The translations under genes were made by a program, and so were the position numbers. This document shows, one piece after another, positions 2,094-17,778 of a DNA stretch of 24,000 nt. Positions within the stretch are counted from its first letter, which is position 1; every line of letters starts with the position of its first letter. Location: contig NZ_JAJUBB010000001.1 of assembly GCF_028683135.1 (NCBI RefSeq), forward strand, positions 554,277-578,276. The letters are read 5' to 3'. A model generated the notes under the pieces. The model was not told the DNA's origin, searched no databases, and was given only the letters and a program-made list of their open reading frames with translations. The stretch is from Enterovibrio qingdaonensis. GTDB lineage: Bacteria; Pseudomonadota; Gammaproteobacteria; Enterobacterales; Vibrionaceae.

Positions 2094-2116
2094 CCAAACT
2101 TACCTAGTTCCACAAT

Positions 2117-2150
2117 GCGCTGATTGAACTCAATCAGCGCGATTTTCCGT
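2117..2150 (+). terminator. Rho-independent terminator after nhaC
   Basis: The stem GCGCTGATT (2117-2125) / AATCAGCGC (2132-2140) has a 6-nt loop and is followed by GATTTTCCGTTTC. Confidence 0.7.
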
Positions 2151-2216: not shown

Positions 2217-2296
2217 AGTCACTAACTTCTTTAATACGTCGTCATTGCGCCCGTTTCAGGGGTGATTTGACTCCGTTTTACCAAGGAGAATAGATA

Positions 2297-3940
2297 GTGA
2301 CTGTCATCCTCAACTCTGTTTTATTTCCACCGTCACCGTCCGAACAACCATCAGCACATGGAAGTGTTTTTAATCTCGCCCCGCTATCAAAGCTATCTCC
2401 AGAAGACAGACGCAAGTTCGTTAAATACGGCCGAGGAAGACTAGAGAAACCTGCATTTAGCACTCTGAATCAAGCATTCGAATATCACGCAGCGCGCTCA
2501 CCGCATGCCATTGCCGCCATGCATGGAAGCCGAGCAATTTCCTACGGCGAGCTTAATCAAGAAGCAGAGAAACTTGCCACGCTTTTGCAAAAAGCAGGAG
2601 TGAAGCAGGGAGAGTCGGTCGGACTATTTATTACGCGCTCGATCCCTATGTTGGTCGGCATGTTAGCTTGCCTTAAAATTGGTGCTAACTATGTTCCGCA
2701 ACATGCCAATGTTGCCCCAGCCAAGCAGCTTGAGCACATCGTCGACGTTGCTAGAATTCGCATCATCCTTACTCTCTCAACGCATAGAAAACAGCTTCCT
2801 ACTTTTAACAACAGCATTGTTCTGGAACTCGATACCTTATTGAAGTCATTCGAGTTCCGCGCGTTGGATATTGCAGGAAAACGACCTACCAAGCCCAGTG
2901 ATGTCTGTTTTGTTTTATTTACCTCTGGAACAACGGGCAAACCAAATGGTGTTCAGGTCACTCACCGCAACGTATGCAATGTTGTTTTGACCTCCCCCGG
3001 CAACTTGGGGGTGACGCCGGGTATGCGTGTCGCACAGATCCTAAGCATCGCCTTTGATATGTCAGCATGGGAAATTTACGTCGCCCTTTGTCACGGTGCG
3101 ACACTGCTTATTCGTGACAGTGTCATTGAACACACAACCAGCAATGCGAACGTCATCATCGCCACGCCATCCATACTTGGGCAAATCAATCCAGATAACT
3201 GTGAAGACGTCAAAGTCGTTGCTGTGGCAGGCGAACCTTGCCCTCGCCCTCTTGCCGAAAAATGGGCAATCCAATGTCGTTTCTACAACGGTTGCGGCCC
3301 AACTGAAACGACCATTATCAACACAGCAAAATGGTTTCAAACTGGCGGAGCACTCACCATTGGTAAGCCCACTCCAAATAACACGATATACATATTGAAC
3401 GACTGCTATGAGCCTTGTGATATCGGTGAAATTGGTGAGATGTGGGCAGGAGGCGCGGGTGTTACCAAAGGGTATCTTGCCAATGCCTCCCTTAGCCAAG
3501 AAAGATATCGTCCCGACCCATTTTTAGGGGATGGTCATATTATGTTCCGCACGCGGGATTTGGGTCGTTGGACGGAAAATGGCGAACTGGAGCATTTCGG
3601 ACGTACCGACGATCAAGTCAAGATAAGAGGGTATCGCGTAGAACTCGATTCCGTCTCTGCCATTTTAGAAACGTTGGACAATTGTCGTCTTGCCATCACG
3701 ATGAAAGTCGACGCTGAAAAACTTGTCTCTTTTGTTGTTCCCGCTGTGATAGACGAAGCCACCGCAATCGCCCATGTGGCAGCTTCATTACCCTACTACT
3801 CAGTCCCAGCGAAAGTGATTGCGTTCGACCAACTGCCTTTGACGCCGCGCGGCAAAATCGACAAACGCAAACTGCTCGACATCTACAAGAACCACGCGTC
3901 ACCTTCGCACGAGCCGGACATCGGGAACAGTGCATCATGA
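2297..3940 (+). CDS. Stand-alone NRPS-type amino acid adenylation (AMP-binding) enzyme, 547 aa, with no carrier domain
   Basis: The GTG start has AAGGAG 9 nt upstream. A-domain core motifs appear in order: ISYGEL (A1), LKIGANYVPQH (A2, variant), FTSGTTGKPNG (A3), FDMSAWE (A4), NGCGPTE (A5), GEMWAGGAGVTKGY (A6), FRTRDLG (A7), GRTDDQVKIRGYRVEL (A8), LPYYSVP (A9), RGKIDKRKL (A10). The protein ends about 25 aa after A10. Confidence 0.85.
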   Translation: MTVILNSVLFPPSPSEQPSAHGSVFNLAPLSKLSPEDRRKFVKYGRGRLEKPAFSTLNQAFEYHAARSPHAIAAMHGSRAISYGELNQEAEKLATLLQKAGVKQGESVGLFITRSIPMLVGMLACLKIGANYVPQHANVAPAKQLEHIVDVARIRIILTLSTHRKQLPTFNNSIVLELDTLLKSFEFRALDIAGKRPTKPSDVCFVLFTSGTTGKPNGVQVTHRNVCNVVLTSPGNLGVTPGMRVAQILSIAFDMSAWEIYVALCHGATLLIRDSVIEHTTSNANVIIATPSILGQINPDNCEDVKVVAVAGEPCPRPLAEKWAIQCRFYNGCGPTETTIINTAKWFQTGGALTIGKPTPNNTIYILNDCYEPCDIGEIGEMWAGGAGVTKGYLANASLSQERYRPDPFLGDGHIMFRTRDLGRWTENGELEHFGRTDDQVKIRGYRVELDSVSAILETLDNCRLAITMKVDAEKLVSFVVPAVIDEATAIAHVAASLPYYSVPAKVIAFDQLPLTPRGKIDKRKLLDIYKNHASPSHEPDIGNSAS

Positions 3941-5274
3941 TGCTCCCCTATACCGACGTTCAATTGCCCCAAAAGCAACCTGCTCTTCGCCGTATATGGA
4001 AATATCCAGTGCTTGAGCACTATGTCCGTTTAATTATTCTGGTGAGTTCCGTCAATATAGCTTGGCTGATTTATGGATTGACCGATGGGGGATGGTTTAC
4101 GGCTTCGCACGTTGACTTGGCAAGCCTAAGTAACGCCGTTATTGGTAATTTTTTTATCGCGGTTATCGTTCGACAACAATACACCATCAATCTACTCTTT
4201 CGGCTTGCCACCCTCGCGCCAGTAACATGGCCATTGGCAGTTCGCTGGCATTTAGGAAAGGTTTATCACCACGGTGGGCTCCACAGCGGTAGCGCGGTCA
4301 ATGGCACCTTGTGGTTTTTCCTGTTTAGTGGAGGCTTAATCTATCAGCACCACGAAAATGCCGCCGAGATATCCACCGTAACCCTTTGGAGTACGGTGAT
4401 AATTAACGCCTTGCTGGTTATCATGATCGCAATGGCAATGCCAACGATACGCCGCAAGTTTCACAATGCGTTTGAAGCCACTCACCGCTTTGCTGGCTGG
4501 TTCATTCTGATCCTGTTCTGGATTCAAACCGTTTCGTTAGCCAAGAACATCAAACCAACAGATGATATCTGGACAACCGTACTACAAACGCCCGCATGCT
4601 GGCTTCTTGGCATCATGACGTTCAGTATCCTTCTGCCTTGGCTCAGATTGCGAAAAGTCCCTGTGCGGATTGATACTCCGTCCAAGCACGTCGCGTTGTT
4701 AAAATTTGACTACGGTGTTACACCGTTTGCGGGTTCATCCATGGCGATTAGTCGTTCTCCTCTGATGGAATGGCATCACTTCGCCAATGTGCCGTCTCCG
4801 ACTGAATCTGGCTATCGGTTAACGGTGTCGAGAGCTGGCGACTGGACCGGGCGTCTTATTGACGACAAACCTTCGCATTTATGGGTGAAAGGTATCCCCA
4901 CCGCGGGTGTTGCCAACATCGAAGTGCTGTTCAAACGCGTTGTCTATATTGCTACTGGCAGTGGTATCGGCCCTTGTTTACCGCACCTTTTGGCGCAAAA
5001 ACTTCCTATGTTGCTGGTCTGGTCAACACGAGATCCTCGGAAAACCTATGGCGATAAACTCGTGGACGAAATACTTGCAGCTCAACCTGATGCCATCATC
5101 TGGGATACCGATAAAGACGGCAAACCAGACATGGTTCACCTTGCGTATGCCGCCTACCAATCCTTCGATGCAGAGGCAGTGATTTGCATCTCCAACCAAA
5201 AACTCACCCGACAGGTTGTGTTCGGCATGGAAAGCAGAGGCATTCCGGCTTTTGGCGCAATTTGGGATTCCTGA
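3937..5274 (+). CDS. Polytopic membrane protein with a C-terminal FAD/NAD(P)-binding (FNR-like) module; NOX/ferric-reductase-like architecture, 445 aa
   Basis: Its start overlaps the upstream stop (ATGA at 3937-3940). It has about 6 predicted TM helices in residues 30-240, with His-rich segments (RWHLGKVYHHGGLHSG, HNAFEATHRFAGW). These are followed by EWHHF (nt 4768-4782, compare the HPF[ST] FAD-domain motif), YRLTVSRAGDWTG, and the nucleotide-binding-like IATGSGIGP (nt 4951 onward). Confidence 0.6.
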   Translation: MMLPYTDVQLPQKQPALRRIWKYPVLEHYVRLIILVSSVNIAWLIYGLTDGGWFTASHVDLASLSNAVIGNFFIAVIVRQQYTINLLFRLATLAPVTWPLAVRWHLGKVYHHGGLHSGSAVNGTLWFFLFSGGLIYQHHENAAEISTVTLWSTVIINALLVIMIAMAMPTIRRKFHNAFEATHRFAGWFILILFWIQTVSLAKNIKPTDDIWTTVLQTPACWLLGIMTFSILLPWLRLRKVPVRIDTPSKHVALLKFDYGVTPFAGSSMAISRSPLMEWHHFANVPSPTESGYRLTVSRAGDWTGRLIDDKPSHLWVKGIPTAGVANIEVLFKRVVYIATGSGIGPCLPHLLAQKLPMLLVWSTRDPRKTYGDKLVDEILAAQPDAIIWDTDKDGKPDMVHLAYAAYQSFDAEAVICISNQKLTRQVVFGMESRGIPAFGAIWDS

Positions 5275-5285
5275 CGGAGTAAAAC

Positions 5286-6050
5286 ATGCTTATTCAAACT
5301 GAGAAAATCCAAGGCGTTGTTATCCTGCGTCTGCACCGTCCCAGCAAACGAAATGCACTTTGTACCGCCCTGATGCAAGAAATGGTCACGACATTAACGC
5401 AATACGACAATGACCCTGATGTTGGGTGTTTCATCCTCACGGGCTCGGAGCAAGTGTTCGCTGCAGGTGCAGACATTAGCGAAATGGCCGACATGTCATA
5501 TCAGGAAATGACGGCAACTGACTATTTTGCAGGTTGGGAAGCGATTAGTCGGATACGAACCCCTATCGTCGCAGCCGTTGCTGGTTATGCGCTTGGCGGA
5601 GGTTGTGAGCTCGCCATGATGTGTGACACTATTTTTGCAGCGGAATCGGCACTATTTGGTCAACCAGAATTGACGATTGGCGTCATTCCAGGAATGGGAG
5701 GATCTCAACGACTGACTCATCTGGTAGGTAAATCAAAAGCAATCGACATGATACTGACGGGAAGAATGATGGACGCGGTTGAAGCTGAACGCGCTGGGTT
5801 GGTTTCTCGCGTTGTTCCCGACGATCAACTCATGCATGAGACCTTAGAAGCGGCGAAAACCATCGCCAGTTACAGTAAACCCGCTGTCATGCTCGCAAAA
5901 GAGTGCGTGCTGAATGCAGAGACGCTCTCTGTGGAAGCCGGCGTGAAATATGAACGTCGCGCCTTTCATGGTCTGTTTGCCACCGAAGACCAGAAAGAAG
6001 GCATGCACGCGTTCATCGAAAAACGAAAACCACACTTTACAGGGCATTAA
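5286..6050 (+). CDS. Enoyl-CoA hydratase/isomerase (crotonase superfamily), 254 aa
   Basis: GGAG lies 8 nt upstream of the ATG. Crotonase signatures are present: KRNAL, FAAGADISEM, AAVAGYALGGGCELAMMCD, FGQPELTIGVIPGMGGSQRL, and EGMHAFIEKRKP at the C-terminus. Confidence 0.9.
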   Translation: MLIQTEKIQGVVILRLHRPSKRNALCTALMQEMVTTLTQYDNDPDVGCFILTGSEQVFAAGADISEMADMSYQEMTATDYFAGWEAISRIRTPIVAAVAGYALGGGCELAMMCDTIFAAESALFGQPELTIGVIPGMGGSQRLTHLVGKSKAIDMILTGRMMDAVEAERAGLVSRVVPDDQLMHETLEAAKTIASYSKPAVMLAKECVLNAETLSVEAGVKYERRAFHGLFATEDQKEGMHAFIEKRKPHFTGH

Positions 6051-6063
6051 CCAGTGCTTAAAA

Positions 6064-6094
6064 CGGCAGGGCTCTCCTGTTCCTGCCAACTTTC
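6064..6094 (+). terminator. Weak terminator-like hairpin after the crotonase gene
   Basis: GGCAGG (6064-6069) / CCTGCC (6081-6086) has an 11-nt loop and is followed by AACTTTCT. The stem is short and the U-tract is poor. Confidence 0.3.
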
Positions 6095-6139
6095 TAGGCG
6101 GACTCCTCGGTGAATCTCTTCCATCATTCTTTGAGAAAG

Positions 6140-6155
6140 TGTCTAAATTTAGACA
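6140..6155. promoter_or_regulatory. Perfect 16-bp palindrome; candidate operator upstream of the adaptor/FUSC-like operon
   Basis: TGTCTAAATTTAGACA is an exact inverted repeat. An extra half-site-like TTAGAC lies at 6176-6181. The palindrome sits about 90-110 nt upstream of the 6245/6266 start codons. Confidence 0.4.
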
Positions 6156-6244
6156 GCTTACTGGATATCCTTTCCTTAGACTTATCCTTCTGCGTCAAGT
6201 CGCATAGGTCATAACTACAACCCATAAACGTTGTTATATGCCGA

Positions 6245-7384
6245 ATGGATGAAGGAATAAGAACAATGAGTGATGCCAATTCACCCGCAGACAGTGAGAG
6301 AAGCGCGCCATCTCAGACAGAAGCCGCCAACAGCGCGCGACGCATAACCTATTACTTGATCGGGATAGCATTGTTGGTATGGCTATATACTTTATGGGCT
6401 GACAGATTCACCCCCATGACTAATCACGGTCGTATCAACGGACAGCTTATCCGAATAACCCCACAAGTCTCCGGTCCCATCGCAAGTGTCTCTGTATTAA
6501 ACAACGCAGAAATACGCCGCGGACAACCGTTACTCGACATTGACCAACAACCCTTCCAGTTAGAAGTCAATGCTGCAAAATTAGCCCTTCAACAAGCCAC
6601 TTTGTCTGTAAGAGCGGACTCTGCCGCAATCGAAGCAGCAAAAGCGAATCAAGTGGCAGCAAGGGTTAAGTTGGTAAATGCAACACAACATGCGCAAAGA
6701 AACAAAACCTTGGCTCGAAGAAACGTCATTAGTCAATCCACCCTTGATGACAGCGTCGCTGCGGAAAACAGTGCCCAAGCTGCGCTCTCACAGGCAACTG
6801 CAGACTTACTCAAAGCCGAACAAGCCTTAGGGCCAAAAGGGAAAAATAACCCCCAAATAAAGTCAGCCCTGAACCGACTAGATCAGGCACTTCTCAATCT
6901 GTCCTACACACAATTAAATGCGCCCGCTTCCGGCGTCATTACCAACATGACGTTAGCGACAGGTGATTACGCATCACAAGGTAAACCAATACTCACCTAT
7001 ATCAATAATTACCATTTTTGGTTGACTGCCATGGTGCGCGAAAGCTCCTTGGTCTACATCGAAAAAGGCACGGTCGTAAAGGTCGTGCTTGACGCTTATC
7101 CCGGACAGATTTTTCACGGGGAGGTATCTTCTGTCGGTTGGGGAAGCAGCGGTAACGGCAACTTGCACGTCGATTCCGTCAATGGCTTGTTTGATTCGCC
7201 CAATGGACTTCAGCATGCACAACGTTTCCCTGTAAACATTCGCTTTTTCGACCTGCCTAAAGACATCAATCTTCGCTATGGCGGAAGAGCCACAGTCAGT
7301 TTCTACACGGGACAATCGTCATTGGGTGAGAGCCTGCTTGATGTATGGACATGGTGTTGGAGTTACCTAAGCTATGTTTCATAG
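6245..7384 (+). CDS. HlyD-family membrane fusion / periplasmic adaptor protein (EmrA/AaeA-like)
   Basis: It has a single N-terminal TM (ITYYLIGIALLVWLYTLW). Next come a lipoyl/hairpin-type region (INGQLIRITPQVSGPIASVSV...RRGQPLLDID), a long Ala/Gln-rich coiled coil, YTQLNAPASGVITNM and a beta-barrel tail. The likelier start is ATG 6266 (MSDANSP), which has GAAGGA 9 nt upstream. Confidence 0.8.
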   Translation: MDEGIRTMSDANSPADSERSAPSQTEAANSARRITYYLIGIALLVWLYTLWADRFTPMTNHGRINGQLIRITPQVSGPIASVSVLNNAEIRRGQPLLDIDQQPFQLEVNAAKLALQQATLSVRADSAAIEAAKANQVAARVKLVNATQHAQRNKTLARRNVISQSTLDDSVAAENSAQAALSQATADLLKAEQALGPKGKNNPQIKSALNRLDQALLNLSYTQLNAPASGVITNMTLATGDYASQGKPILTYINNYHFWLTAMVRESSLVYIEKGTVVKVVLDAYPGQIFHGEVSSVGWGSSGNGNLHVDSVNGLFDSPNGLQHAQRFPVNIRFFDLPKDINLRYGGRATVSFYTGQSSLGESLLDVWTWCWSYLSYVS

Positions 7385-8372
7385 CCGTGGAAATGGCATT
7401 CTTCGTCTCGCGCTTTTTCCCGTGCTGCTTTTGTTTTGGCAACACTATTTCGGTACGTCCCTTCCATTGATAGCACCGGCAATTTGTGCCATGTTTCTCA
7501 GCATCACCGTAAAGCCACCACCTCTAAAAATGGTGCTTTTCATGGGGATTATGCTCTTTGCATCCGCGTGGTTTCAGGCATTTCTGAGTAATTTCCTCAT
7601 TGACCGACCCATCATTTATTACAGCTGTTTATATATTGTTTTTTACTGGTGTATTGAGCGAGCGCGCAGCAACCCACAGGATCTACTTTCTACCATGCTG
7701 CTATTGTCGACGATCTTGGTCGCTGTATTTACCCAACAAAAGGGGCTGGATGTCAGTCAAATTCCCCTAGCACTGCTCAAGGAAATCATGGTTGCAGGTC
7801 TGGTGGCGTACCTCGCTTTTTTCTTACTACCTGAGGGCAACCCCATTGCTGACACGACCCCACCACCAGCGTTTGGGGCTGTCCACGTTGAAATTTGGCA
7901 CATCATATTTAAAGCGATGGTCATTTTGATCGTGCTTATCACTGCCATTCACATGAACTTGGTACAAAGCACCATAGTGACACTCACCATAGCCCTCATT
8001 TTGAAAGACCCCAACCCCATTAGCGGGCATAGGTACGGATTAAGGCGACTTCTAGCCACTTACGCAGGTTTTTTGTTTGCTATGCCCGCACTCCTTGCCA
8101 GTGCTTTGGAAACTAACCTTGTTGGTCAATTGAGTGCCGCCCTATGCTGTGCCCTATTAATGGGGATATACGCGACGCGGCGTTTCGCGAGCTTTAATGC
8201 CATTCAACTGCTTTTCTCAGGCTATGTGGTTCTTATTTATTACGGCCTGACACAAGGTGCAGGCAGTGCCTTTATTGATGATGGTAAACGCCTGTTTTCG
8301 ATCCTTTTTGCTGTCCTGTTAGGCTCACTCGTATTGGTTCTTATACAACCTTCCAAACGGGTAACTTATTGA
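7374..8372 (+). CDS. Integral membrane protein, probably a half-size FUSC-like (DUF2955-type) efflux partner, 332 aa
   Basis: It overlaps the adaptor gene by 11 nt. It is highly hydrophobic, with two clusters of TM helices separated by a short loop (PEGNPIADTTPPPAFG). The family assignment comes from memory of adaptor-adjacent DUF2955 proteins and was not verified. Confidence 0.5.
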   Translation: MFHSRGNGILRLALFPVLLLFWQHYFGTSLPLIAPAICAMFLSITVKPPPLKMVLFMGIMLFASAWFQAFLSNFLIDRPIIYYSCLYIVFYWCIERARSNPQDLLSTMLLLSTILVAVFTQQKGLDVSQIPLALLKEIMVAGLVAYLAFFLLPEGNPIADTTPPPAFGAVHVEIWHIIFKAMVILIVLITAIHMNLVQSTIVTLTIALILKDPNPISGHRYGLRRLLATYAGFLFAMPALLASALETNLVGQLSAALCCALLMGIYATRRFASFNAIQLLFSGYVVLIYYGLTQGAGSAFIDDGKRLFSILFAVLLGSLVLVLIQPSKRVTY

Positions 8373-8788: not shown

Positions 8789-10261
8789 ATGGAAAACTTC
8801 AAACATATTCCTGAACCATTTCGTATTCGCGTTATCGAGCCAGTAAAGCGCACAACACGCGCTTACCGTGAAGAAGCCATTGTAAAAGCGGGCATGAACC
8901 CATTCTTGTTAGACAGCGAAGACGTCTTTATCGATTTATTGACCGACAGTGGCACGGGTGCAATTACGCAAGATATGCAAGCCGCAATGCTGCGTGGTGA
9001 TGAAGCTTACAGTGGGAGCCGCAGCTACTATGCACTCTCCAATGCAGTGAAAGACATCTTTGGTTACGCGTTAACTATCCCTACGCACCAAGGCCGTGGT
9101 GCTGAGCAAATCTATATTCCCGTGCTGATCAAAAAGCGTGAGAAAGAAAAAGGCTTAGACAGAAACAAAATGGTCGCGCTGTCGAACTACTTCTTTGACA
9201 CCACGCAAGGCCATACACAAGTAAACTGCTGTGTGGCGAAGAACGTGTACACCAAAGAAGCCTTTGACACCTCCGTCACGGCAGATTTTAAAGGTAACTT
9301 TGACCTAGAGAAGTTGGAAGCGGCGATTATCGAAGCGGGTGCGGAAAACGTGCCATACATCGTAAGCACCATCACGTGTAACTCTGCAGGCGGTCAGCCA
9401 GTTTCTATTGCCAACTTAAAGGCGGTCTACGAGATTGGTCAGAAATATGACATCCCAGTCATCATGGACTCCGCGCGCTTTGCTGAGAATGCTTACTTTG
9501 TGCAGCAACGCGAAGAGGAATACAAAGACTGGACCATCGCCGATATCACGCGCGAAGCCTATAAATATGCTGATGGTCTGGCGATGTCCGCGAAAAAAGA
9601 TGCCATGGTCCAAATGGGCGGCCTGCTGTGCTTCAAAGACGAATCCATGATGGATGTTTATCAAGAGTGTCGCACCCTTTGTGTCGTTCAAGAAGGCTTC
9701 CCAACATACGGCGGGCTTGAAGGCGGTGCCATGGAACGTTTGGCCGTTGGCCTTTACGATGGCATGCGCCAAGAATGGCTGGAGTACCGTATCAAGCAAG
9801 TTCAATATCTGGTTGATGGTTTGGAATCTATCGGAGTTATCTGTCAACAAGCAGGTGGCCATGCCGCATTTGTTGATGCAGGTAAACTGTTACCGCATAT
9901 TCCCGCAGATCAATTCCCTGCTCATGCATTGGCTTGTGAGCTCTATAAAGTCGCGGGCATCCGTGCGGTAGAAATCGGCTCTCTTTTGCAAGGCCGTGAC
10001 CCACAAACAGGTGAGCAATACCCTTGCCCAGCTGAACTTCTTCGACTCACTATTCCTCGTGCTACCTATACCCAATCGCACATGGATTTCATTATTGAAG
10101 CGTTTGAAGAGGTGAAAAAGAACGCCCAATATGTGAAGGGCCTTGAGTTCACCTATGAGCCATCAGTATTGCGTCACTTTACTGCTCGACTCACTGAGGT
10201 ATCACCGGTAACAACTATAAAAAAGCCTTCGGCTAAACCTCAATTAGAACCAACCGCATAA
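8789..10261 (+). CDS. tnaA: Tryptophanase (tryptophan indole-lyase), 490 aa
   Basis: The N-terminus [31 protein letters not shown]... is nearly identical to E. coli TnaA. The PLP-lysine region [10 protein letters not shown] is present. It is collinear with E. coli TnaA through ...[12 protein letters not shown], then carries a 19-aa extra tail. Confidence 0.97.
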
Positions 10262-10271
10262 ATATATTATC

Positions 10272-10300
10272 GAGCGCAATTAATATTGCGCTCTTTTTTT
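10272..10300 (+). terminator. Rho-independent terminator between tnaA and tnaB
   Basis: GAGCGCAAT (10272-10280) / ATTGCGCTC (10285-10293) has a 4-nt loop and is followed by T7 (10294-10300). Confidence 0.8.
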
Positions 10301-10343
10301 ACCTTTTTTAAATTTAATTTCGTGAAATTTGAGAGTTATAATT

Positions 10344-11558
10344 ATGGAAAAGAGCCCTTCTTTAATAGGGGGAGCCTGTATCATTGCCAGCGTTTGCGTT
10401 GGTGCTGGTATGTTAGGGCTCCCCAGTTCAGGTGCGGGAGCCTGGACAGTTTGGTCAATTCTTGCAATTACAGCAACCATGATTGTTATGACTATTTCTG
10501 GTTGGATGTTATTGGAGTCGTTTAAACACTACGATCTAAAAGTTTCTTTTAATTCTGTTACTAAAGATCTTCTCGGCAGCAAAGTAAATCTCTTCAATAA
10601 TATTACCGTATACTTTGTCGGAGGCATTTTATTATATGCTTACATTACATCTTCTGGCCTGATCCTGCAGGAAATAACAGGACTTAGCAGTCAGCTAACC
10701 TCCATCATTTTTGTTTTAGTCTTTTCGCTATTTGTTTGGCATTCCACGCGCGCAGTGGACCGTATTTCAGTCGTTCTGATTGCATTTATGGTTCTGAGTT
10801 TTGTCTTTGGCGTGTCGGGAATGGCAATTAACGTCGATTTAGGTGTGCTTTTCGATGCTGCAAATGAAGAGCGTAAATATGCACCTTACGCAATGGCTAT
10901 GTTACCTGTGGCGTTAACCTCGTTTGGTTACCACCATTCCGTGTCGTCAATGCGTGCCTACTATGGCGAAGAGCGTAAAGCAAAGTACGCGATTCTCGGT
11001 GGCACAATCATTGCGCTAACACTGTATTGCCTATGGTTGGTCAGTATTTTTGGCAACCTCCCTCGCCATGAGTTTGGTCCGGTTATTGAGCAAGGTGGTA
11101 ATGTCGATGTTCTGTTGAAAGAACTCGATGGTGTTATCACCTCAGACAGCGTCTCCAAAGCCATCAATGCATTCTCAATGGCCGCAATACTGTCCTCCTT
11201 TATAGGCGTAGGCTTAGGTGTTTTTGACTTCTTGGCCGATTTCTTCAAGTTTGACGATACGCGAGAAGGCAGAACCAAATGTTGGTTGGTGACTTTCTTA
11301 CCGCCATTGGTCATGTCACTGCTATTTCCGTTCGGATTCATCGTTGCTATCGGCTACGCGGGTGCTGCGGCAACCGTTTGGGCATGTATCGTTCCAGCAC
11401 TGCTGGCGTTGAAATCACGTTCAATGATTGGCGGCAATCAAGGCTTTATGGCACCGGGCGGGAAAGCCATGATTGGTGCGGTCATTCTTTTTGGTGTGCT
11501 AACGGCACTCTTCCACTTCCTCGCTATGGCTGGGTTATTACCTGCATTCATCGGGTAA
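10344..11558 (+). CDS. tnaB: Tryptophan-specific permease of the aromatic amino acid (HAAAP, Mtr/TnaB/TyrP) family
   Basis: It lies immediately downstream of tnaA and has about 11 TMs. The N-terminal GGACIIASVCVGAGMLGLP matches the TnaB/Mtr G-rich motif, and SFNSVTKDLLG parallels E. coli SFNTITKDLIG. I chose ATG 10344 (MEKSPS...) over the TTG at 10329 used by the ORF track. Confidence 0.85.
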   Translation: MEKSPSLIGGACIIASVCVGAGMLGLPSSGAGAWTVWSILAITATMIVMTISGWMLLESFKHYDLKVSFNSVTKDLLGSKVNLFNNITVYFVGGILLYAYITSSGLILQEITGLSSQLTSIIFVLVFSLFVWHSTRAVDRISVVLIAFMVLSFVFGVSGMAINVDLGVLFDAANEERKYAPYAMAMLPVALTSFGYHHSVSSMRAYYGEERKAKYAILGGTIIALTLYCLWLVSIFGNLPRHEFGPVIEQGGNVDVLLKELDGVITSDSVSKAINAFSMAAILSSFIGVGLGVFDFLADFFKFDDTREGRTKCWLVTFLPPLVMSLLFPFGFIVAIGYAGAAATVWACIVPALLALKSRSMIGGNQGFMAPGGKAMIGAVILFGVLTALFHFLAMAGLLPAFIG

Positions 11559-11610: not shown

Positions 11611-13260
11611 TCATTCTTTGGTTTCTGAGTTCGATGTTTCATCATCTTCAGGCGTTTTTACCGACGCAACGCCATGTGCGTTAAACGAAGGCAGTGGCTC
11701 TCCCTTTTTCCCCTCTTTATCTTGAGCAAACACATGCAACGTCTCTGAGTTATCCAACTTATCACCCTCTTCTTTTTTGAAGCGTTGAGCATGAACATGT
11801 GGAAGATGTGATGTTAAGGGAGGGGTATCCTCTTCCAATTCCTGTGGAATATCTTGAATCGGCGTTACGCCAAGGGTGTTTGCTGATAACTCAAATGTCA
11901 CCAGAAATACCGAATTTTTGACGGCAACATGCAACGTAGTTTGATGAAGGCTTAATATCGCTTCAACAATTTTCGTCCCCATACCGAGTGAGCCTGACGT
12001 ACTGTGTTGATCTATGCTGTTTTGGATTTGAAAGACAATCCGTGTCGAACCTTTACGTTTACCTTCAATTTTAATCTTACTTTGCGCAGGACTATGACGC
12101 ACAGCGTTCTCGATCAAATTATCAAACACCCGATTTATTAGTTGCTCGTCGGCCATTATCGCAAGCTTAGGATCGGCAATAATCGACATTTCTATCTGTT
12201 TTTGGGTCAACGATAAATCGAATCGCTTTTTCACCTCAGTAAGCAACGCCAGCACCCCTATGCCCTGATAGGAAAGTACAACTTTTGCAGACGGTGAGCG
12301 CGCCGCTTCTAACTGTTCGTTAAGGCGCTGTTGGAGTCTGAGCGCATTGTGATACGCCGTATCAATCATTCCTTGGCCTTCTTTGTGCTGAATGCGCCAC
12401 GTTTCGAGATAACCAAGAATATTCGCAAGTGGCGTTTTTAAATCATGACTTAACTGCACCAAGTGTTCTCTTCGCTGCGCTTCCTGTACCCGAAGTTGAA
12501 TGAACTGTTGTTGAATAATCGCCATCATGCGTCGATATTGCGCCGCTAACTCTTGCAATTCTGCCGCGTTGAACTGAAGAGGAGGGGTGATCCTAAACTC
12601 TGATAAAGCGGCGTCTTCTATTTGTTTCACCATCATCTTACCCGGTGAAATAATCTGCCTGTAGACCATGCGATAGACCACTAAGGCAAAAAACAAAATG
12701 GCGATCAAGGCACCTGCAACAACGGGTATGTATTGCAAGAGAGACGTCGGGTCGTCTAACGCTATTCGCTGTTGACTGCCAATCACCACATACAGGTAAC
12801 CTGCAATGTCTTCACCTACGTCGATTTGCGCTGCTGAAAAGACCTTTTTTCTACCGGGCATGAGCGGATCCTCTCCCAAAATTGGAAAAGGTTGCCCTGC
12901 TAAGAATTGTTTGATCGGCGTTGTATCGATCTGCGGTTGAAGCACATCGTCAATTGGGGGGCCGGACGTCGTAATATTGCCGTCAGGGTCTAAGAAGTAA
13001 ATTTCAAAATCAGGTCCCAACAACATCAGCGTATGGAAAATCGAAGACAACGCATTGGGGCTATAGTCATCACCCACCATCAGCGGGTTGTCGTCTCGCA
13101 TATGTACAGCAAGTTCTCTGTGAAGCGACTGCTGTGTGCGAAGCTCATTTTCTTCCCAAACGCTAACACTCAACAAGGTCAATATCGCTGCACTCACGAG
13201 AAACCAAACCGACGTGAACAACAACAATCGATGCTTAAACGCCAAGCGCAACCTCCTCAA
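11611..13260 (-). CDS. Sensor histidine kinase (two TM segments, periplasmic domain, HisKA + HATPase_c) with an acidic C-terminal tail, 549 aa
   Basis: The H-box is LSHDLKTPLANILGYLE and the N-box is FDNLIENAVRHSP, with a G-box-like GSLGMGTKIVEAI. TM1 is LLLFTSVWFLVSAAILTLL and TM2 is IPVVAGALIAILFFALVVY. About 90 low-complexity residues follow the ATPase domain. Confidence 0.9.
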   Translation of the reverse strand: MRRLRLAFKHRLLLFTSVWFLVSAAILTLLSVSVWEENELRTQQSLHRELAVHMRDDNPLMVGDDYSPNALSSIFHTLMLLGPDFEIYFLDPDGNITTSGPPIDDVLQPQIDTTPIKQFLAGQPFPILGEDPLMPGRKKVFSAAQIDVGEDIAGYLYVVIGSQQRIALDDPTSLLQYIPVVAGALIAILFFALVVYRMVYRQIISPGKMMVKQIEDAALSEFRITPPLQFNAAELQELAAQYRRMMAIIQQQFIQLRVQEAQRREHLVQLSHDLKTPLANILGYLETWRIQHKEGQGMIDTAYHNALRLQQRLNEQLEAARSPSAKVVLSYQGIGVLALLTEVKKRFDLSLTQKQIEMSIIADPKLAIMADEQLINRVFDNLIENAVRHSPAQSKIKIEGKRKGSTRIVFQIQNSIDQHSTSGSLGMGTKIVEAILSLHQTTLHVAVKNSVFLVTFELSANTLGVTPIQDIPQELEEDTPPLTSHLPHVHAQRFKKEEGDKLDNSETLHVFAQDKEGKKGEPLPSFNAHGVASVKTPEDDETSNSETKE

Positions 13261-13263
13261 CCC

Positions 13264-14007
13264 TTAATGCTTCATCGGGGCAGACTCACGGAACTTATAC
13301 CCTACTCCCCAAACAGTATGGATGTATTTTGGCACATTGGGTCGGCTCTCCAATTTGCTCCTTAATCGGTTCACGGCACAACAAACGGTATGCCGATAAC
13401 CATCATAATCGGTGTTCCACACACGGCTCAAAAGCTCATCTTTGCTAAAAACACGGTCAGGGCGCTTTGCAAGGCAACACAACAAGGAAAATTCGGTGGG
13501 TGTTAGGTCAATCGAAATGCCGTCTAGCGTGACGCAATGGGTTTCCTGGCAAATTTCCAGATGCTTAAAAATCATTGCCGAGGGTGAATTCACTGGTTCA
13601 ACAGGATTCACGCTAGGTGTATCAACCGACCATTGATGGTGCGTGATACGACGTAACAAAGCGCGAACTCGGGCCTGAAACTCAATCACGCTAAACGGTT
13701 TCGCCAAATAGTCATCAGCCCCTGATTCAAACCCCTCAACCATGTCCGTTTCGGTGTCCATCGCCGTCAAAATAAGAATAGGCAAACCTTTCTGCTGGCG
13801 GCGAAGCTGTTGGCATAGCACGACCCCATCACCATCCTCTAACCCTCGGTCTAAAACGATGGCGTCCACCATGCAGCTATTAAGTATTTCAAACCCCTCT
13901 TGCAGCGATGCGCCTTTCAAAACATCAAACCCCATGACTTTCAAATGAAGCGCAATAAGATCAGAAATATCCGCATCATCTTCCAACACCAGAACTGTTT
14001 GAGACAT
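13264..14007 (-). CDS. OmpR/PhoB-family response regulator, 247 aa
   Basis: The receiver domain shows VLVLEDDADISDL, DAIVLDRGLEDGDG and LPILILTAMD. The winged-helix output shows LTPTEFSLLCCLAKRPDRVFSKDELL...VWGVGYKF. Its stop lies 3 nt before the kinase start. Confidence 0.92.
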   Translation of the reverse strand: MSQTVLVLEDDADISDLIALHLKVMGFDVLKGASLQEGFEILNSCMVDAIVLDRGLEDGDGVVLCQQLRRQQKGLPILILTAMDTETDMVEGFESGADDYLAKPFSVIEFQARVRALLRRITHHQWSVDTPSVNPVEPVNSPSAMIFKHLEICQETHCVTLDGISIDLTPTEFSLLCCLAKRPDRVFSKDELLSRVWNTDYDGYRHTVCCAVNRLRSKLESRPNVPKYIHTVWGVGYKFRESAPMKH

Positions 14008-14467: not shown

Positions 14468-15460
14468 ATGAAAAAACTTTTAACCACGTCGTTGCTGTTG
14501 CTGGCGTCCGCTCCTATGACAAGCTTGGCTTCAGAATGTGGCAAGGTAACAATCGCGGATATGAACTGGAACTCCGCAAGCCTCATCGCTAACGTTGACC
14601 GCTTTATCCTCGCAGAAGGCTATAACTGCGATGCTGAATTGGTTCCAGGCGACACGATGCCAACGGGTACATCCATGATCGAAAAGGGTGAGCCTGATGT
14701 TGCACCTGAGCTTTGGAGTAATTCACTTAAAGCTGCACTGGATCGTGGTGTAGAAGAAGGTCGCCTTCGTTTCACTGGTGCTGTTCTTTCCGATGGTGGT
14801 GAAGAAGGTTTTTGGGTACCTAAGTACTTAGTAGATAAGAAACCCGAACTCGCGACAATTGAAGGCATTGTGGCCAACCGTGAGCTGTTTGAACACCCAG
14901 AAGATCCATCTAAGTCAGCATTCTACGGCTGTCCAGCGGGTTGGAACTGTCAAATTTCCTCTGGCAACCTATTTAGCGCAATGGGCTTAGGTGATGCTGG
15001 TTTTGAACTGATTGATCCAGGTTCAGGCGCTGGCTTGTCAGGCTCAATTGCCAAAGCCTACGAGCGAGGTGAAGGTTGGTTTGGTTACTACTGGGCACCA
15101 ACAGCCGTTCTCGGTAAATATGAAATGGTGAAAGTCGATTTTGGCTCGGGTGTTGATGAAGAACACTTCAAAAGCTGTACCACCAGTGCAGAATGTTTGG
15201 AGCCTAAAGTGACCATGTATCCACCATCAGCAGTTGATACCGTTATCACTGAAAGCTTTGCAGGCCGCTCTCCAGAAGCCGTGAACTATTTATCTACACG
15301 CTCTTTCACTAATGCACAATTAAATAGTTTGCTTGCATGGATGGAAGAGAATCAGGCCGATGGTGAAATCGCCGCACAACACTTCCTTGAGAATCACGAA
15401 GATATCTGGGGTCAATGGGTAAGCCCAGAAGTCGCTACTAAAGTGAAAGCTGCGCTGTAA
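14468..15460 (+). CDS. proX: Glycine betaine/proline betaine-type ABC transporter substrate-binding protein (OpuAC/ProX family), 330 aa
   Basis: It has a signal peptide (MKKLLTTSLLLLASAPMTSLA). The mature protein has NWNSASL and GYYWAP aromatic motifs typical of quaternary-amine binding proteins. It is followed by permease and ATPase genes. Confidence 0.8.
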   Translation: MKKLLTTSLLLLASAPMTSLASECGKVTIADMNWNSASLIANVDRFILAEGYNCDAELVPGDTMPTGTSMIEKGEPDVAPELWSNSLKAALDRGVEEGRLRFTGAVLSDGGEEGFWVPKYLVDKKPELATIEGIVANRELFEHPEDPSKSAFYGCPAGWNCQISSGNLFSAMGLGDAGFELIDPGSGAGLSGSIAKAYERGEGWFGYYWAPTAVLGKYEMVKVDFGSGVDEEHFKSCTTSAECLEPKVTMYPPSAVDTVITESFAGRSPEAVNYLSTRSFTNAQLNSLLAWMEENQADGEIAAQHFLENHEDIWGQWVSPEVATKVKAAL

Positions 15461-15473
15461 CGCCTCTCCCAAA

Positions 15474-15506
15474 GCGGCGGGTTGTGTTTCTCAGCCCGCC
15501 ATTTTC
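15474..15506 (+). terminator. Intercistronic hairpin / partial terminator between proX and proW
   Basis: GGCGGG (15476-15481) / CCCGCC (15495-15500) has a 13-nt loop and is followed by ATTTTC. Confidence 0.45.
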
Positions 15507-15626
15507 AATATAACGATAATTATTTTGTGACCTATCTTAGCTATGTCTTAAATAAGGTTACGTAAGACCCTTAGTACAAGGGTGTATAGTTTTAATAATT
15601 AAGGACGCAGAGGACGCAGTACTGTT

Positions 15627-16526
15627 ATGGCTGACAATTCTTGGCTGACCGAATTTCCGGAGATGTCTCGTTCAGATCTCCTGACGATTCGCAAAACACT
15701 CGATGGCGCTTATCGTGAGTTTTCACGAAACTATGGTGAAACCATCGAATCATTTTTTGATCCCCTTCTTCAATTTCTCATCTGGTTTGAAAAGCTACTG
15801 TTAGGCACCCCTTGGTGGCTAATGATTGCGATTCTTGCAGGGGTCTCATACGTCGCCAGCCGCTCTTGGAAACTTGCTGTTGCCGTCATCTTATCTTTCC
15901 TCGCCATTGGCTACTTTGGCATGTGGGAAGACACCATGCGTACCATGAGTATTATCTTGGTATGTACCATGCTCGCTATATTCCTTGGCATACCCATCGG
16001 TATTGCAATGGCGAGATCAAACCGAGTCCAATCGACAGTAACGCCAATGCTTGATGTCATGCAAACCATGCCCGCATTCGTCTACCTCATTCCTGTCGTT
16101 ATGCTGCTTGGTATCGGTAAAATTCCTGGCGTCATCGCGGTGGTAATTTATGCCATTCCGCCCGTCATACGACTTACAAACCTTGGGATACGGCTCGTTG
16201 ATAAAGAAGTCCTTGAGGCCGCTACTGCTTACGGCGCAAGCCCGATGCAGCGTTTATTTGGTGTTCAGCTACCATTAGCGATGCCAACAATCATGGCGGG
16301 CATCAACCAAACCATCATGATGGCTCTGGCGATGGTTGTTATCGCATCGATGATCGGTGTGAAAGGTTTGGGTCAACCTGTTCTCAAATCCATCACCAAT
16401 CAATACTTCACCTTGGGCCTGATTAATGGACTTGCCATCGTAGCCTTGGCGATCATCTTCGACCGTGTATCACAAAGTTATGCGAAGCGTACACAACAGC
16501 ATTTGTGCGGAGGCCACAATGAGTAA
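15627..16526 (+). CDS. proW: Glycine betaine/proline ABC transporter permease (ProW/OpuAB-like), 299 aa
   Basis: It is a polytopic protein with the BPD-transporter EAA-type loop (EVLEAATAYGASPMQRLFGVQLPLAMP). It sits between the SBP and ATPase genes. Confidence 0.88.
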   Translation: MADNSWLTEFPEMSRSDLLTIRKTLDGAYREFSRNYGETIESFFDPLLQFLIWFEKLLLGTPWWLMIAILAGVSYVASRSWKLAVAVILSFLAIGYFGMWEDTMRTMSIILVCTMLAIFLGIPIGIAMARSNRVQSTVTPMLDVMQTMPAFVYLIPVVMLLGIGKIPGVIAVVIYAIPPVIRLTNLGIRLVDKEVLEAATAYGASPMQRLFGVQLPLAMPTIMAGINQTIMMALAMVVIASMIGVKGLGQPVLKSITNQYFTLGLINGLAIVALAIIFDRVSQSYAKRTQQHLCGGHNE

Positions 16527-17778
16527 CGCAGAAAACAGCACGCCGCTAATTCAAATCAAGGGTCTTTACAAAATCTTTGGCAACACACCTGCAAAAGTGT
16601 TGCCGGACGTAAAAGCGGGGAAGTCTAAGGACGATATTCTCGCAGACACGGGGCACACCGTAGGCCTCCAAGACATCAATCTCGATATCGATCGTGGTGA
16701 AATCTTCGTCATTATGGGGTTGTCGGGTTCAGGTAAATCGACGCTAATCCGACACTTCAACCGCTTGATCGAGCCAACTGAAGGCCAGATCATTGTTGAA
16801 GGTGAAGATGTCATGAAGTTGGATGACAAAGGCCTTCAGGACTTCCGCCGCCATAAGATGTCGATGGTATTTCAGCGCTTTGGTCTCATGCCGCATCGCA
16901 CTGTGCTTCAAAACGTCGCATACGGTTTGCACGTTCAAGGCGTAGATAAAGTGGAGCGCGAACAAAAAGCGACTGACTGGTTAGATACGGTTGGTCTTGG
17001 CGGTTATGAGAAACAATACCCGTCTCAACTGTCTGGCGGCCAGCAACAACGTGTGGGACTAGCCCGTGCGCTGTGTACGGATGCTGAAATTCTATTGATG
17101 GATGAAGCGTTTTCTGCGCTTGACCCATTGATCCGAAGTGAAATGCAAGACCAACTGATTGGACTTCAGGAGAAGCTTCACAAAACCATTATCTTTATCA
17201 CGCATGACTTGGACGAAGCCCTTCGCTTAGGCGATCGCATTGCCATCTTGCGTGATGGTAAGTTGGTACAGCAAGGGCGTCCAGTCGACATTCTTCTCAA
17301 CCCTGCTGATGATTATGTCGAAGCATTCGTTAAAGATGTGAACCGCGCGCGTGCACTGACCGTTGATACTGTCATGAAGCCACAAAGCCTGCGCATTAGC
17401 GCAGAAACTGTCGGCGAAGCGATTGCTCAAATGCGTCAGGCGAAAGCCCAACACGGTTACTACATGAATGACGATGGCTATCAAGGTGCCTTGTGCCGAG
17501 ACAAGCTTGAGTCTGTGGAAGCATCTCGCCATGACGATGCCATTGATGACTCCGTGCTAGAAAGTGTACCAGGTATCCAATCTGACGCGCTGCTTGAGCA
17601 AGTCATTCCAGACACCTTAGAGCATGAGCTGCCGCTTCCTGTATTGGATGACGCAGGCGAATTGCAAGGTGAATTGTCTAGAGCAAACCTTGCCGAAGTA
17701 TTGAGTGACCAGTCTGCGGTCAGCAATGACTCCGACTCAACGAAAGGCAAGTCCGACGAAATGAAAGCATCCGCTTAA
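16519..17778 (+). CDS. proV: Glycine betaine/proline ABC transporter ATP-binding protein (ProV/OpuAA-like) with a C-terminal CBS-type region
   Basis: Walker A is GLSGSGKST, the signature is LSGGQQQRV and Walker B is ILLMDEAFSALD. I chose the start at ATG 16519 (MSNAENS), which has GGAGG upstream and an 8-nt overlap with the proW stop. I did not use the track start at 16465. Confidence 0.9.
   Translation: MSNAENSTPLIQIKGLYKIFGNTPAKVLPDVKAGKSKDDILADTGHTVGLQDINLDIDRGEIFVIMGLSGSGKSTLIRHFNRLIEPTEGQIIVEGEDVMKLDDKGLQDFRRHKMSMVFQRFGLMPHRTVLQNVAYGLHVQGVDKVEREQKATDWLDTVGLGGYEKQYPSQLSGGQQQRVGLARALCTDAEILLMDEAFSALDPLIRSEMQDQLIGLQEKLHKTIIFITHDLDEALRLGDRIAILRDGKLVQQGRPVDILLNPADDYVEAFVKDVNRARALTVDTVMKPQSLRISAETVGEAIAQMRQAKAQHGYYMNDDGYQGALCRDKLESVEASRHDDAIDDSVLESVPGIQSDALLEQVIPDTLEHELPLPVLDDAGELQGELSRANLAEVLSDQSAVSNDSDSTKGKSDEMKASA

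Follow-up and report, generated by a model that had tools for sequence, protein, structure and literature searches.

A widespread bacterial gene trio in Enterovibrio qingdaonensis, very probably the split form of the fungal ChNPS12/TmpL/TmpB system, joins a carrier-less adenylation enzyme, a NOX-fold membrane flavoprotein and a crotonase

What joins an enzyme of amino acid activation to a membrane flavoprotein and an enoyl-coenzyme A (CoA) hydratase? The question is raised by three plus-strand open reading frames (ORFs) at 2297-3940, 3937-5274 and 5286-6050 of a 24,000-nucleotide stretch of Enterovibrio qingdaonensis DNA (contig NZ_JAJUBB010000001.1, positions 554,277 to 578,276), referred to below as the window. 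They encode an adenylation (A) enzyme of the nonribosomal peptide synthetase (NRPS) type, a membrane flavoprotein and a crotonase, together called the trio. A preliminary description, made from the sequence alone, had proposed an uncharacterised module in which a carrier-less A enzyme is coupled to a flavoprotein resembling NADPH oxidases (NOX) and ferric reductases; its ORF coordinates, the ATGA overlap at 3937-3940, the 11-nt gap ahead of the crotonase ORF and the FDMSAWE motif at 3053-3073 are all exact. An exact protein match assigns the source to Enterovibrio sp. ZSDZ35 (LRP49_02440), in Vibrionaceae. The A enzyme and the membrane protein match both halves of fused fungal proteins, and therefore the three genes of the window are very probably a bacterial, split version of the fungal ChNPS12/TmpL/TmpB system.

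Among 1.84 billion cluster representatives, searched exhaustively with HMMER, 1190 relatives of the membrane protein were found; the best include fungal proteins of 1005-1202 aa, some of them from Mycena, Apiospora and Tricholomella, all with an N-terminal AMP-binding domain. The membrane protein is 47% identical to the Mycena 'nonribosomal peptide synthetase 12' (P0125; E 2e-117) and 42% identical to the Apiospora protein P0153 (E 5e-94), while the A enzyme aligns with the N-terminal halves of the same two proteins at 42% and 40% identity (E 2e-120 and 8e-118). The specificity-code elements of the window A enzyme have counterparts in the fungal fusions, which read FDM[AC]AWE and N[CV]CGPTE. 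A fused form also occurs on a bacterial-type contig (L081), where a 1016-aa A-membrane protein (P0121, 59% identical) is followed by a crotonase gene and then by a DUF6733 gene (5026-5736). Homology was measured against these NPS12-type fusions, and TmpL and TmpB are set beside the trio by their published description.

Genetic knowledge of the fused fungal form goes back to 2006-2010. ChNPS12 of Cochliobolus heterostrophus carries a single A domain followed by a ferric-reductase-like transmembrane (TM) domain; nested within the NPS12 clade are stand-alone A domains of bacteria, which were read as free loading enzymes (Bushley and Turgeon, PMC2823734). TmpL of Alternaria brassicicola and Aspergillus fumigatus comprises an AMP-binding domain, six TM helices and a domain whose binding of flavin adenine dinucleotide (FAD) was shown by spectroscopy, with no thiolation or condensation domain; it is needed for homeostasis of reactive oxygen species (ROS), conidiation and virulence, and its family was called restricted to filamentous fungi (Kim et al., PMC2766074). 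TmpB of Aspergillus nidulans, of TmpL-type architecture, controls conidiation via extracellular signals, with a hydrophobic amino acid proposed as its substrate, and AfeA, a ligase of the 4-coumarate-CoA-ligase-like type, and TmpA, a membrane flavoprotein on its own, likewise control conidiation by extracellular signals (Soid-Raggi et al., PMC4804170). The crotonase linkage of the bacterial trio parallels that reported for Aspergilli, in which a conserved enoyl-CoA hydratase/isomerase gene adjoins tmpB (PMC4804170).

Like TmpL, TmpB and ChNPS12, the trio combines an NRPS-type A domain devoid of thiolation and condensation domains with six TM helices, an FAD/NAD(P) domain and a crotonase neighbour. 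Unlike these single polypeptides, the window has two coupled genes, the split being the rule in the 80 bacterial loci described below; the host is a bacterium instead of a filamentous fungus, the fungal proteins reside in the Woronin body or plasma membrane, and the A3 motif reads PKG in fungi and PNG in bacteria. The closest split precedent is the AfeA-TmpA pair, which likewise consists of a separate adenylating enzyme and a TmpA-type flavoprotein, syntenic and acting in one genetic pathway; unlike the trio, it contains a 4-coumarate-CoA-ligase-like instead of an NRPS-type enzyme, and no crotonase is reported for it.

Precomputed annotations assign Pfam PF26733 '03009_C' to homologues of the membrane protein, and the 445-aa protein is a member of this family, with a NOX-like fold. 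We take the Pfam name to point to the Coprinopsis cinerea adenylate-forming reductase 03009, and the ChNPS12/TmpL/TmpB family to be what Hoffmeister's group calls class IV adenylate-forming 'reductases'. Kalb and colleagues in 2014 and Brandenburger and colleagues in 2016 reportedly placed 03009 and Ceriporiopsis subvermispora Nps1 in that class, and the fungal A domains are said, in the same two reports, to prefer L-Ser or L-Ala/L-Val/L-Ser, which serves here as a lead only. This preference fits the small hydrophobic pocket predicted for the window A enzyme, the class IV reductases (Nps1; C. cinerea 03009 and 06235) being linked to the trio through the Pfam name and the NPS12-type fusions, not by direct alignment. 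To our knowledge, a 'reductase' activity and its product have not been demonstrated for class IV enzymes. A secondary account describes type IV adenylate-forming reductases, called 'L-serine reductases' there, as carrying a C-terminal domain of the ferredoxin-NADP reductase (FNR) type after the A domain; this published account deals with neither the TM domain nor a crotonase.

The claim that the combination is uncharacterised stands in part. The fused ChNPS12/TmpL/TmpB precedent, the Pfam family and partial A-domain biochemistry already exist, and the chemistry is still uncharacterised biochemically. The literature searched yielded no description of the split, translationally coupled bacterial operon, of its wide distribution or universal crotonase partner, or of its association with a two-component system and the loss of outer-haem ligands; a search on PF26733 found nothing, and one for a bacterial operon of this kind gave unrelated papers only.

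Examining the trio across genomes is central to judging whether its three genes belong together. One genome per bacterial or archaeal species was scanned with conserved membrane-protein peptides, giving more than 599 pattern matches, of which at least 557 species-genome loci were confirmed by tblastn, and synteny was read in the best 80 of these confirmed loci. In 78 of the 80, the membrane gene is flanked directly by the A enzyme gene on its 5' side and by the crotonase gene on its 3' side, all three in the same orientation, the two exceptions being a locus cut at its 5' end (L024) and one in Microbulbifer with no crotonase match (L080). The loci span Vibrionaceae, Arenicellales, Paraburkholderia (Burkholderiales), Endozoicomonas and other Oceanospirillales, and extend to Chloroflexota, Bacteroidota, Actinomycetota and one cyanobacterium. 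The trio, whose conservation the preliminary description had left to be traced beyond Vibrionaceae, is present in at least six bacterial phyla, having been retained or transferred as one block. Pairwise identity has a median of 54% for the A enzyme, 60% for the membrane protein and 64% for the crotonase, and the distances within the three protein sets correlate positively with one another (Spearman 0.38-0.61). Clustering all flanking ORFs of the 80 loci gave no universal fourth gene. In one Chloroflexales locus (L074), a second, partial membrane-flavoprotein copy (2-757 and 3602-4918) lies upstream of the A enzyme of the trio, which suggests tandem trio copies or local duplication.

The membrane protein escaped local Pfam and NCBIfam scans, with no Pfam match even at E <= 1, leaving Ferric_reduct (PF01794), FAD_binding_8 and NAD_binding_6 among the unmatched models; searched by sequence, the PDB yielded no more than a weak match of 35 residues to NOX2 (E 0.006-0.02). 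An AlphaFold2 model built from 15 diverse homologues is confident, with a pLDDT of 85.4 and a pTM of 0.82. It places helices at residues 28-49, 61-91, 113-139, 147-167, 176-205 and 219-236, with an FNR-like domain of beta/alpha type behind them. Compared with the PDB by Foldseek, the model finds its best full-length matches in DUOX1, NOX2 and SpNOX (E 3e-12 to 2e-10, probability 1.00), with TM-scores of 0.59/0.65 for SpNOX, and dozens of ferredoxin-NADP reductase family structures match its C-terminal half. The assignment of EWHHF and GSGIGP to FAD and NAD(P)H binding is borne out by the NOX2 alignment, by family conservation and by the FNR-like fold. The FAD motif reads EWH(S/H)F in the family profile, with H280 and F282 kept in 144/144 representatives. 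Of about 145 wide-family representatives, at least 126 retain GSGIGP, and its single residues are kept still more often (G341 in 144/145, G343 in 143/145 and P346 in 140/144). The aromatic residue at the position of W443 presumably stacks on the flavin, as in FNR and NOX.

NOX enzymes ligate an inner and an outer haem through two pairs of histidines on TM3 and TM5, spaced 13-14 residues apart. The membrane protein retains part of this pattern. H116 is a candidate inner-haem ligand on sequence grounds, and the TM5 cluster is strongly conserved (H176 143/144, E180 141/143, H183 141/144, R184 142/144). In the family profile alignment, HNxFExxHRF pairs with YFEVFWYTHHL of NOX2, placing H183 on the inner-haem ligand His209. 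The outer-haem positions carry no histidine: among 149 wider-family representatives, fungi included, position 130 is F, L or Y and position 196 is A, V, I or T. Invariant TM residues in the same set comprise N40, N71, R79, N85, R103, G113, G114, H116, W126, R172, H176, E180, H183, R184 and W195, most of which map, on the secondary structure of the model, to the cytosolic ends of TM2, TM3 and TM5 and to the TM2-TM3 loop. These features suggest at most one haem, the inner one, or another His/Glu-bound centre, with chemistry at the cytosolic face of the membrane. Since the outer-haem histidines are absent family-wide, transmembrane electron transfer appears unlikely; the protein is probably not a transmembrane NADPH oxidase, and electron export by it is unlikely. 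The clustered histidines noted in the preliminary description consequently do not form the bis-haem pattern of NOX. Its NOX/ferric-reductase-like label holds for the flavoprotein fold, which Foldseek recovers, and 'NOX-type' is overstated, given the missing outer-haem histidines and the lack of any ferric-reductase Pfam match. In six TM helices with an FNR-like dehydrogenase fold, in EWH-x-F and in one TM5 histidine aligned with NOX2, the protein resembles NOX2, DUOX1, NOX5, SpNOX and FRE; unlike them, it has no outer-haem ligands, its histidines are spaced by 5 and 7 instead of 13-14 residues, and it is coupled to an adenylating enzyme.

A variant of the flavoprotein, 607 aa long with an N-terminal cyclic-nucleotide-binding domain and 48% identical to the window protein, is encoded at 6001-7824 in each of four further loci (L082-L085). 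It is tandemly duplicated there alongside genes of the SnoaL_4 and CoA_binding_2 families, on contigs that further contain integrase, Toprim and phage-like genes, and neither an adenylating enzyme nor a crotonase is encoded nearby. PF26733 members of greater divergence (43-48% identity) are standalone or fused to a cyclic-nucleotide-binding domain, and universal pairing of the family with an adenylating enzyme is refuted by such members. By sequence, the trio represents one particular group of orthologues within a wider family of membrane oxidoreductases.

The A enzyme matches Pfam AMP-binding at 3e-66 and contains no further domain. It just reaches the model TIGR01733 'amino acid adenylation domain' (319.6 bits against a curated cut-off of 317.4), and all acyl-CoA ligase models remain far under cut-off, for example NF004837 at 149.8 against 476; to judge from these scores, it is not a member of the ANL CoA-ligase family models. 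Its closest solved structures are the NRPS A domains LgrA, TycA and GrsA (1amu, 5e-76). The picture of a carrier-less, NRPS-type enzyme that stops soon after the A10 motif is upheld, K520 lying 27 residues before the stop. The NRPS-type A8 motif, which serves the thioester-forming conformation, is retained. The atypical A2 (YVPQH) and A3 (KPNG) motifs pointed out earlier are genuine family traits: YVPQ[H/D] (A2), TSGTTGxPNG (A3), NxCGPTE (A5) and FRTRDLG (A7) recur in most orthologues, the window carrying YVPQH, TSGTTGKPNG, NGCGPTE and FRTRDLG. The A3 Asn (PNG) occurs in the commonest variants of 75 bacterial orthologues, and PKG is kept in two aligned fungal fusions.

The ten-residue specificity code, which the preliminary description had suggested extracting against GrsA, was read as D254 M255 W258 I288 A309 A311 G332 I340 I341 K520, or DMWIAAGIIK. 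Its positions were set via core-motif anchors and GrsA numbering from established knowledge; the register is backed by the ungapped 17-residue spacing from position 282 to 299, a stretch in which HMMER places a 1-residue gap against LgrA, LgrA being one residue longer. The residues D, M and W of the A4 motif are invariant among full-length orthologues, and we take D254 to be the equivalent of GrsA Asp235, which contacts the alpha-amino group, and K520 the equivalent of GrsA Lys517. The classical alpha-amino (Asp) and carboxylate (Lys) contacts are thus predicted within a small hydrophobic pocket. Across 75 orthologues from all phyla, the code reads DMWIAA[S/A/C/G]I[I/V]K with rare changes only, and this near-invariance points to a single substrate for the whole family, across phyla. 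An amino acid substrate, as had been suggested from the A4 Asp, is consistent with the invariant Asp235 and Lys517 equivalents and with the reports on fungal relatives.

Domain and motif scans found no carrier, condensation or MbtH-like gene in the window, in agreement with the earlier statement that NRPS partner genes are missing from it; the one GxDS carrier-like match lies inside NhaC. Nor is any small carrier-like ORF conserved up to 4 kb from the trio across the 80 related loci, in 4 of which chance matches to the carrier motif occur. NRPS assembly-line partner domains are absent from the window, and none is co-conserved in the 80 loci.

The third protein is a canonical crotonase, as described before, matching PF00378 (ECH_1) at 3e-76 and possessing both catalytic glutamates. 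Over its full length it scores 308 bits with EchA8 of Mycobacterium tuberculosis and 263 bits with the mitochondrial crotonase of rat, and it falls just under the cut-off of the equivalog model NF004517 (380.3 against 396 bits). E108 and E128, equivalent to rat Glu144 and Glu164, are invariant in 66 trio-linked sequences; judged from these residues, the enzyme is catalytically intact. It is like EchA8 and ECHS1 in full-length similarity and in both catalytic glutamates, and unlike them in that its gene is locked to the A enzyme and flavoprotein genes, not to those of beta-oxidation.

A route through an aminoacyl-CoA would give each protein a task. The A enzyme would activate one L-amino acid as its aminoacyl-AMP, with Val, Ala, 2-aminobutyrate (Abu) or Ser favoured because DMWIAAxI[IV]K is the code of a pocket that is small and hydrophobic, and would presumably dock onto the membrane flavoprotein. 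The acyl group may then pass to free CoA, yielding an aminoacyl-CoA; this transfer is proposed because no carrier was found, the A8 motif is kept and a crotonase needs a CoA thioester. Linne and colleagues reportedly found in 2007 that A domains can form aminoacyl-CoA. In the flavoprotein, hydride from NAD(P)H would reach FAD and then a single haem or another His/Glu-ligated centre at the cytosolic membrane face, where the activated amino acid would undergo a redox reaction, for instance desaturation at C2-C3 or oxygenation at C3. The crotonase would hydrate or dehydrate C2-C3 of the CoA ester, interconverting dehydro- and beta-hydroxy-aminoacyl-CoA; seryl- and beta-hydroxy-aminoacyl-CoA are formally 3-hydroxyacyl-CoAs, which offers a rational link from an amino acid to a crotonase. 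The product is probably a small diffusible metabolite, which fits the two-component linkage, the nearby efflux and outer-membrane genes, and the extracellular conidiation signal of TmpA/TmpB. The specific chemistry, comprising the aminoacyl-CoA, the flavoprotein redox step and the C2-C3 hydration or dehydration, is tentative and would more readily prove wrong than right; identity and chemistry taken together, as the best overall explanation, stand at about an even chance.

Several observations weigh against the aminoacyl-CoA route. The A enzyme is of NRPS type, and CoA is suggested as acceptor only by the crotonase and the missing carrier. The A3 Asn departs from nearly all ANL enzymes, the A3 Lys (PKG) being near-universal in that superfamily. 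The crotonase, about 60% identical to the housekeeping EchA8, exhibits no obvious specialisation for an amino-substituted substrate. Haem binding is read from a weak profile alignment and fold similarity, and the His/Glu cluster might be the site of a non-haem metal or lack a cofactor altogether. Since neither an adenylating enzyme nor a crotonase lies near the divergent PF26733 proteins, the substrate of the redox reaction is not necessarily an adenylate or CoA ester. The fungal enzymes, moreover, are said to be named 'reductases', which points to aldehyde formation instead.

That last point leads to the main rival, in which the aminoacyl adenylate is reduced directly via NAD(P)H and FAD, carrier-free, to an alpha-amino aldehyde that ends in dihydropyrazine or pyrazine volatiles or signals, the crotonase being accessory or a salvage enzyme. 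In its favour, the secondary account classes fungal relatives as 'type IV adenylate-forming reductases' and 'L-serine reductases' and gives them an FNR domain at the C-terminus; the FNR-like domain of the window protein keeps its complete set of NAD(P)H and FAD motifs, and fungal genetics and the adjacent two-component system suggest a diffusible signal. Pyrazines derived from amino aldehydes are established bacterial signals (PvfC, AusA). Known carboxylate reductases, however, use a phosphopantetheine thioester and a reductase (R) domain of the short-chain dehydrogenase/reductase (SDR) type, and we know of no precedent for adenylate reduction by an FNR/NOX-type module. Like carboxylic acid reductase (CAR) and Lys2, with their adenylation-thiolation-reductase order, the trio pairs an adenylation domain with a nicotinamide-dependent redox domain on a single substrate and builds no peptide; CAR and Lys2 are soluble, with a phosphopantetheinyl carrier and an SDR-type reductase, whereas the trio is carrier-less, of NOX/FNR type and embedded in the membrane. 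Direct reduction also gives no role to the six TM helices and the invariant His/Glu/Arg cluster at the cytosolic face, and leaves unexplained a crotonase kept in 78/80 loci with intact catalytic Glu residues. It is judged unlikely.

A catabolic or detoxifying route would convert an amino acid or related acid to a short-chain acyl-CoA, with an ordinary crotonase and a flavoprotein linked to the respiratory chain or quinones. The crotonase is nearly a housekeeping equivalog (380 against 396 bits for NF004517; 308 bits for EchA8), quinones would be possible electron partners of a membrane flavoprotein with one haem, and the window neighbours include the transport and amino-acid catabolic genes nhaC, tnaA and a Trp/Tyr permease. 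Those catabolic neighbours are lineage-specific, though, and no dehydrogenase, thiolase or aminotransferase is co-conserved with the trio in the 80 loci. We know of no catabolic route that uses an NRPS-type A domain, and the patchy cross-phylum spread at about 60% identity looks like an accessory trait, not core metabolism. The route is accordingly rated as improbable, below direct reduction.

A true NOX or ferric reductase, passing cytosolic NAD(P)H electrons across the membrane to O2 or Fe(III) with the A enzyme as regulator or ligand supplier, is very improbable. The best full-length structural matches are indeed to DUOX1, NOX2 and SpNOX, and fungal tmpL mutants have disturbed ROS homeostasis (PMC2766074). 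It is contradicted by the loss of both outer-haem histidines in the 149 family representatives, lacks a Ferric_reduct, FAD_binding_8 or NAD_binding_6 hidden Markov model match, and explains neither the invariant A-enzyme code nor the crotonase. Hardly credible is a free loading enzyme for an NRPS encoded elsewhere, with two functionally unrelated neighbours. Action in trans is established for VibE, YbtE, DltA and other stand-alone A domains, and bacterial clade members were read in this way in 2010 (PMC2823734), but the three genes are adjacent in 78/80 loci across phyla with a common 4-nt overlap, the A and membrane genes are fused in fungi and on a bacterial-type contig, and no NRPS or carrier gene is co-conserved with the trio.

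Recognising the trio as the probable bacterial counterpart of the fungal system matters because TmpL and TmpB are important for the virulence of plant and human fungal pathogens, ROS balance and sporulation signalling. The same gene set is a compact operon in hundreds of culturable bacteria, in which the soluble adenylating half is separate and the chemistry testable in systems suited to E. coli, turning an old fungal puzzle into an experiment feasible with bacterial proteins. The view of the TmpL-type family as fungus-specific is corrected, and the bacterial 'stand-alone A domains' of the NPS12 clade are reinterpreted as partners of a membrane redox enzyme. A NOX-fold subfamily is also defined that, from its residues and model, appears incapable of classical transmembrane electron transfer. 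A bolder extension, which we consider a long shot, is that the trio is a complete, portable pathway around a new type of enzyme, an outer-haem-less NOX-fold flavoprotein that oxidises or desaturates an adenylate- or CoA-activated amino acid carrier-free, with electrons from NAD(P)H at the cytosolic face of the membrane, the crotonase finishing a diffusible signal common to bacteria and fungi. If true, this signal would be the long-sought TmpB/TmpL metabolite behind fungal conidiation signalling and virulence, and the gene set would be ancient or horizontally transferred among marine bacteria, actinomycetes, Chloroflexota and fungi.

The positions of the features are collected in Table 1. Upstream, a terminator-like hairpin sits 3' of the nhaC gene and, by its sequence, appears to mark the 5' boundary of the transcription unit of the trio. 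The ATGA junction is predicted to couple the A enzyme and the membrane flavoprotein translationally, the -4 ATGA overlap being the modal A/membrane junction across related loci.

Table 1. Features of the trio and its linked two-component system, in window positions.
Feature	Position	Strand	Remarks
Terminator-like hairpin	2116-2141	+	11-bp stem, 6 GC pairs, T-rich tail
Shine-Dalgarno AAGGAGA	2283-2289	+	7 nt before GTG of A enzyme; read from sequence
A enzyme	2297-3940	+	547 aa, GTG start; no thiolation, condensation, thioesterase or reductase domain
A3 phosphate-binding loop TSGTTGKPNG	2924-2953	+	Residues 210-219
A4 motif FDMSAWE	3053-3073	+	Residues 253-259; read from sequence
A10 catalytic lysine K520	3854-3856	+	K in all full-length orthologues; 27 residues before stop
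ATGA stop/start overlap, A enzyme/membrane gene	3937-3940	+	ORFs in different frames
Membrane flavoprotein	3937-5274	+	445 aa; about 6 TM helices and FNR-like domain
Predicted TM helices and FNR-like FAD/NAD(P)H domain			6 TM helices at about residues 28-236; FNR-like domain at about 239-445 (AlphaFold2 model)
H116	4282-4284	+	Cytosolic start of TM3; His in 132/133 wide-family representatives
H176-x3-E180-x2-H183-R184	4462-4485	+	Cytosolic start of TM5
EWHHF, FAD motif	4768-4782	+	Aligns with NOX2 EWHPF (family profile vs 8gz3_B)
GSGIGP, NAD(P)H-binding glycine motif of FNR family	4957-4974	+	Residues 341-346
C-terminal W443-D-S	5263-5271	+	W or F 127/134, D 131/133, S 124/132
Crotonase, EchA8/ECHS1-type enoyl-CoA hydratase	5286-6050	+	254 aa
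Catalytic Glu108	5607-5609	+	In GGGCE108L
Catalytic Glu128	5667-5669	+	In QPE128L
Two-component system	11611-14007	-	Histidine kinase 11611-13260; OmpR-type response regulator 13264-14007

Beyond the trio, two associations are prominent at the level of lineages. One is the two-component system, orthologous histidine kinase (HK) and response regulator (RR) genes adjoining the trio in about 22 gammaproteobacterial loci (including L026, L038, L039, L041, L061, L075, L011-L016 and L032). This recurrent linkage makes it a probable regulator of the trio. In Endozoicomonas and Amphritea (L026, L038, L039, L041), the two genes lie directly downstream of the crotonase on the same strand, and A enzyme, membrane protein, crotonase, RR and HK appear to form a five-gene unit; in this window, lineage-specific insertions separate the two-component system from the trio. 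The periplasmic sensor domain of the kinase matched no named family in the domain scan. In 18 Bacteroidota loci (L021, L028, L029, L033, L037, L040, L043, L045-L048, L050, L052, L059, L060, L065, L066, L069), the gene directly behind the crotonase, on the same strand, encodes a DUF6733 protein of about 245 aa with a signal peptide and an outer-membrane beta-barrel-like composition.

The other neighbours are more local. The nhaC gene is syntenic with the trio only in Enterovibrio and Grimontia, and four further genes were rejected as module parts, accompanying the trio only in these two genera: those for an HlyD-type adaptor (6245-7384), a DUF2955 protein (7374-8372), a tryptophanase (8789-10261) and a Trp/Tyr permease (10329-11558). 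The first two overlap, span 6245-8372 on the plus strand and encode an EmrA/MdtN/AaeA-like membrane-fusion protein (379 aa) and an inner-membrane protein of the DUF2955 family (332 aa); only in Enterovibrio/Grimontia loci does this pair form an insert that parts the crotonase from the two-component system. The pair could mediate efflux of an aromatic or carboxylic acid, possibly exporting the product of the trio in this lineage. The tryptophanase-type beta-eliminating lyase (490 aa) and the permease (409 aa), at 8789-11558 on the plus strand, are found in some Grimontia/Enterovibrio loci only and resemble an insertion specific to that lineage. A glycine-betaine-type ABC transporter (14468-17778, plus strand), comprising an OpuAC-like binding protein, a permease and an ATPase, lies downstream of the two-component genes and appears to be unrelated housekeeping context.

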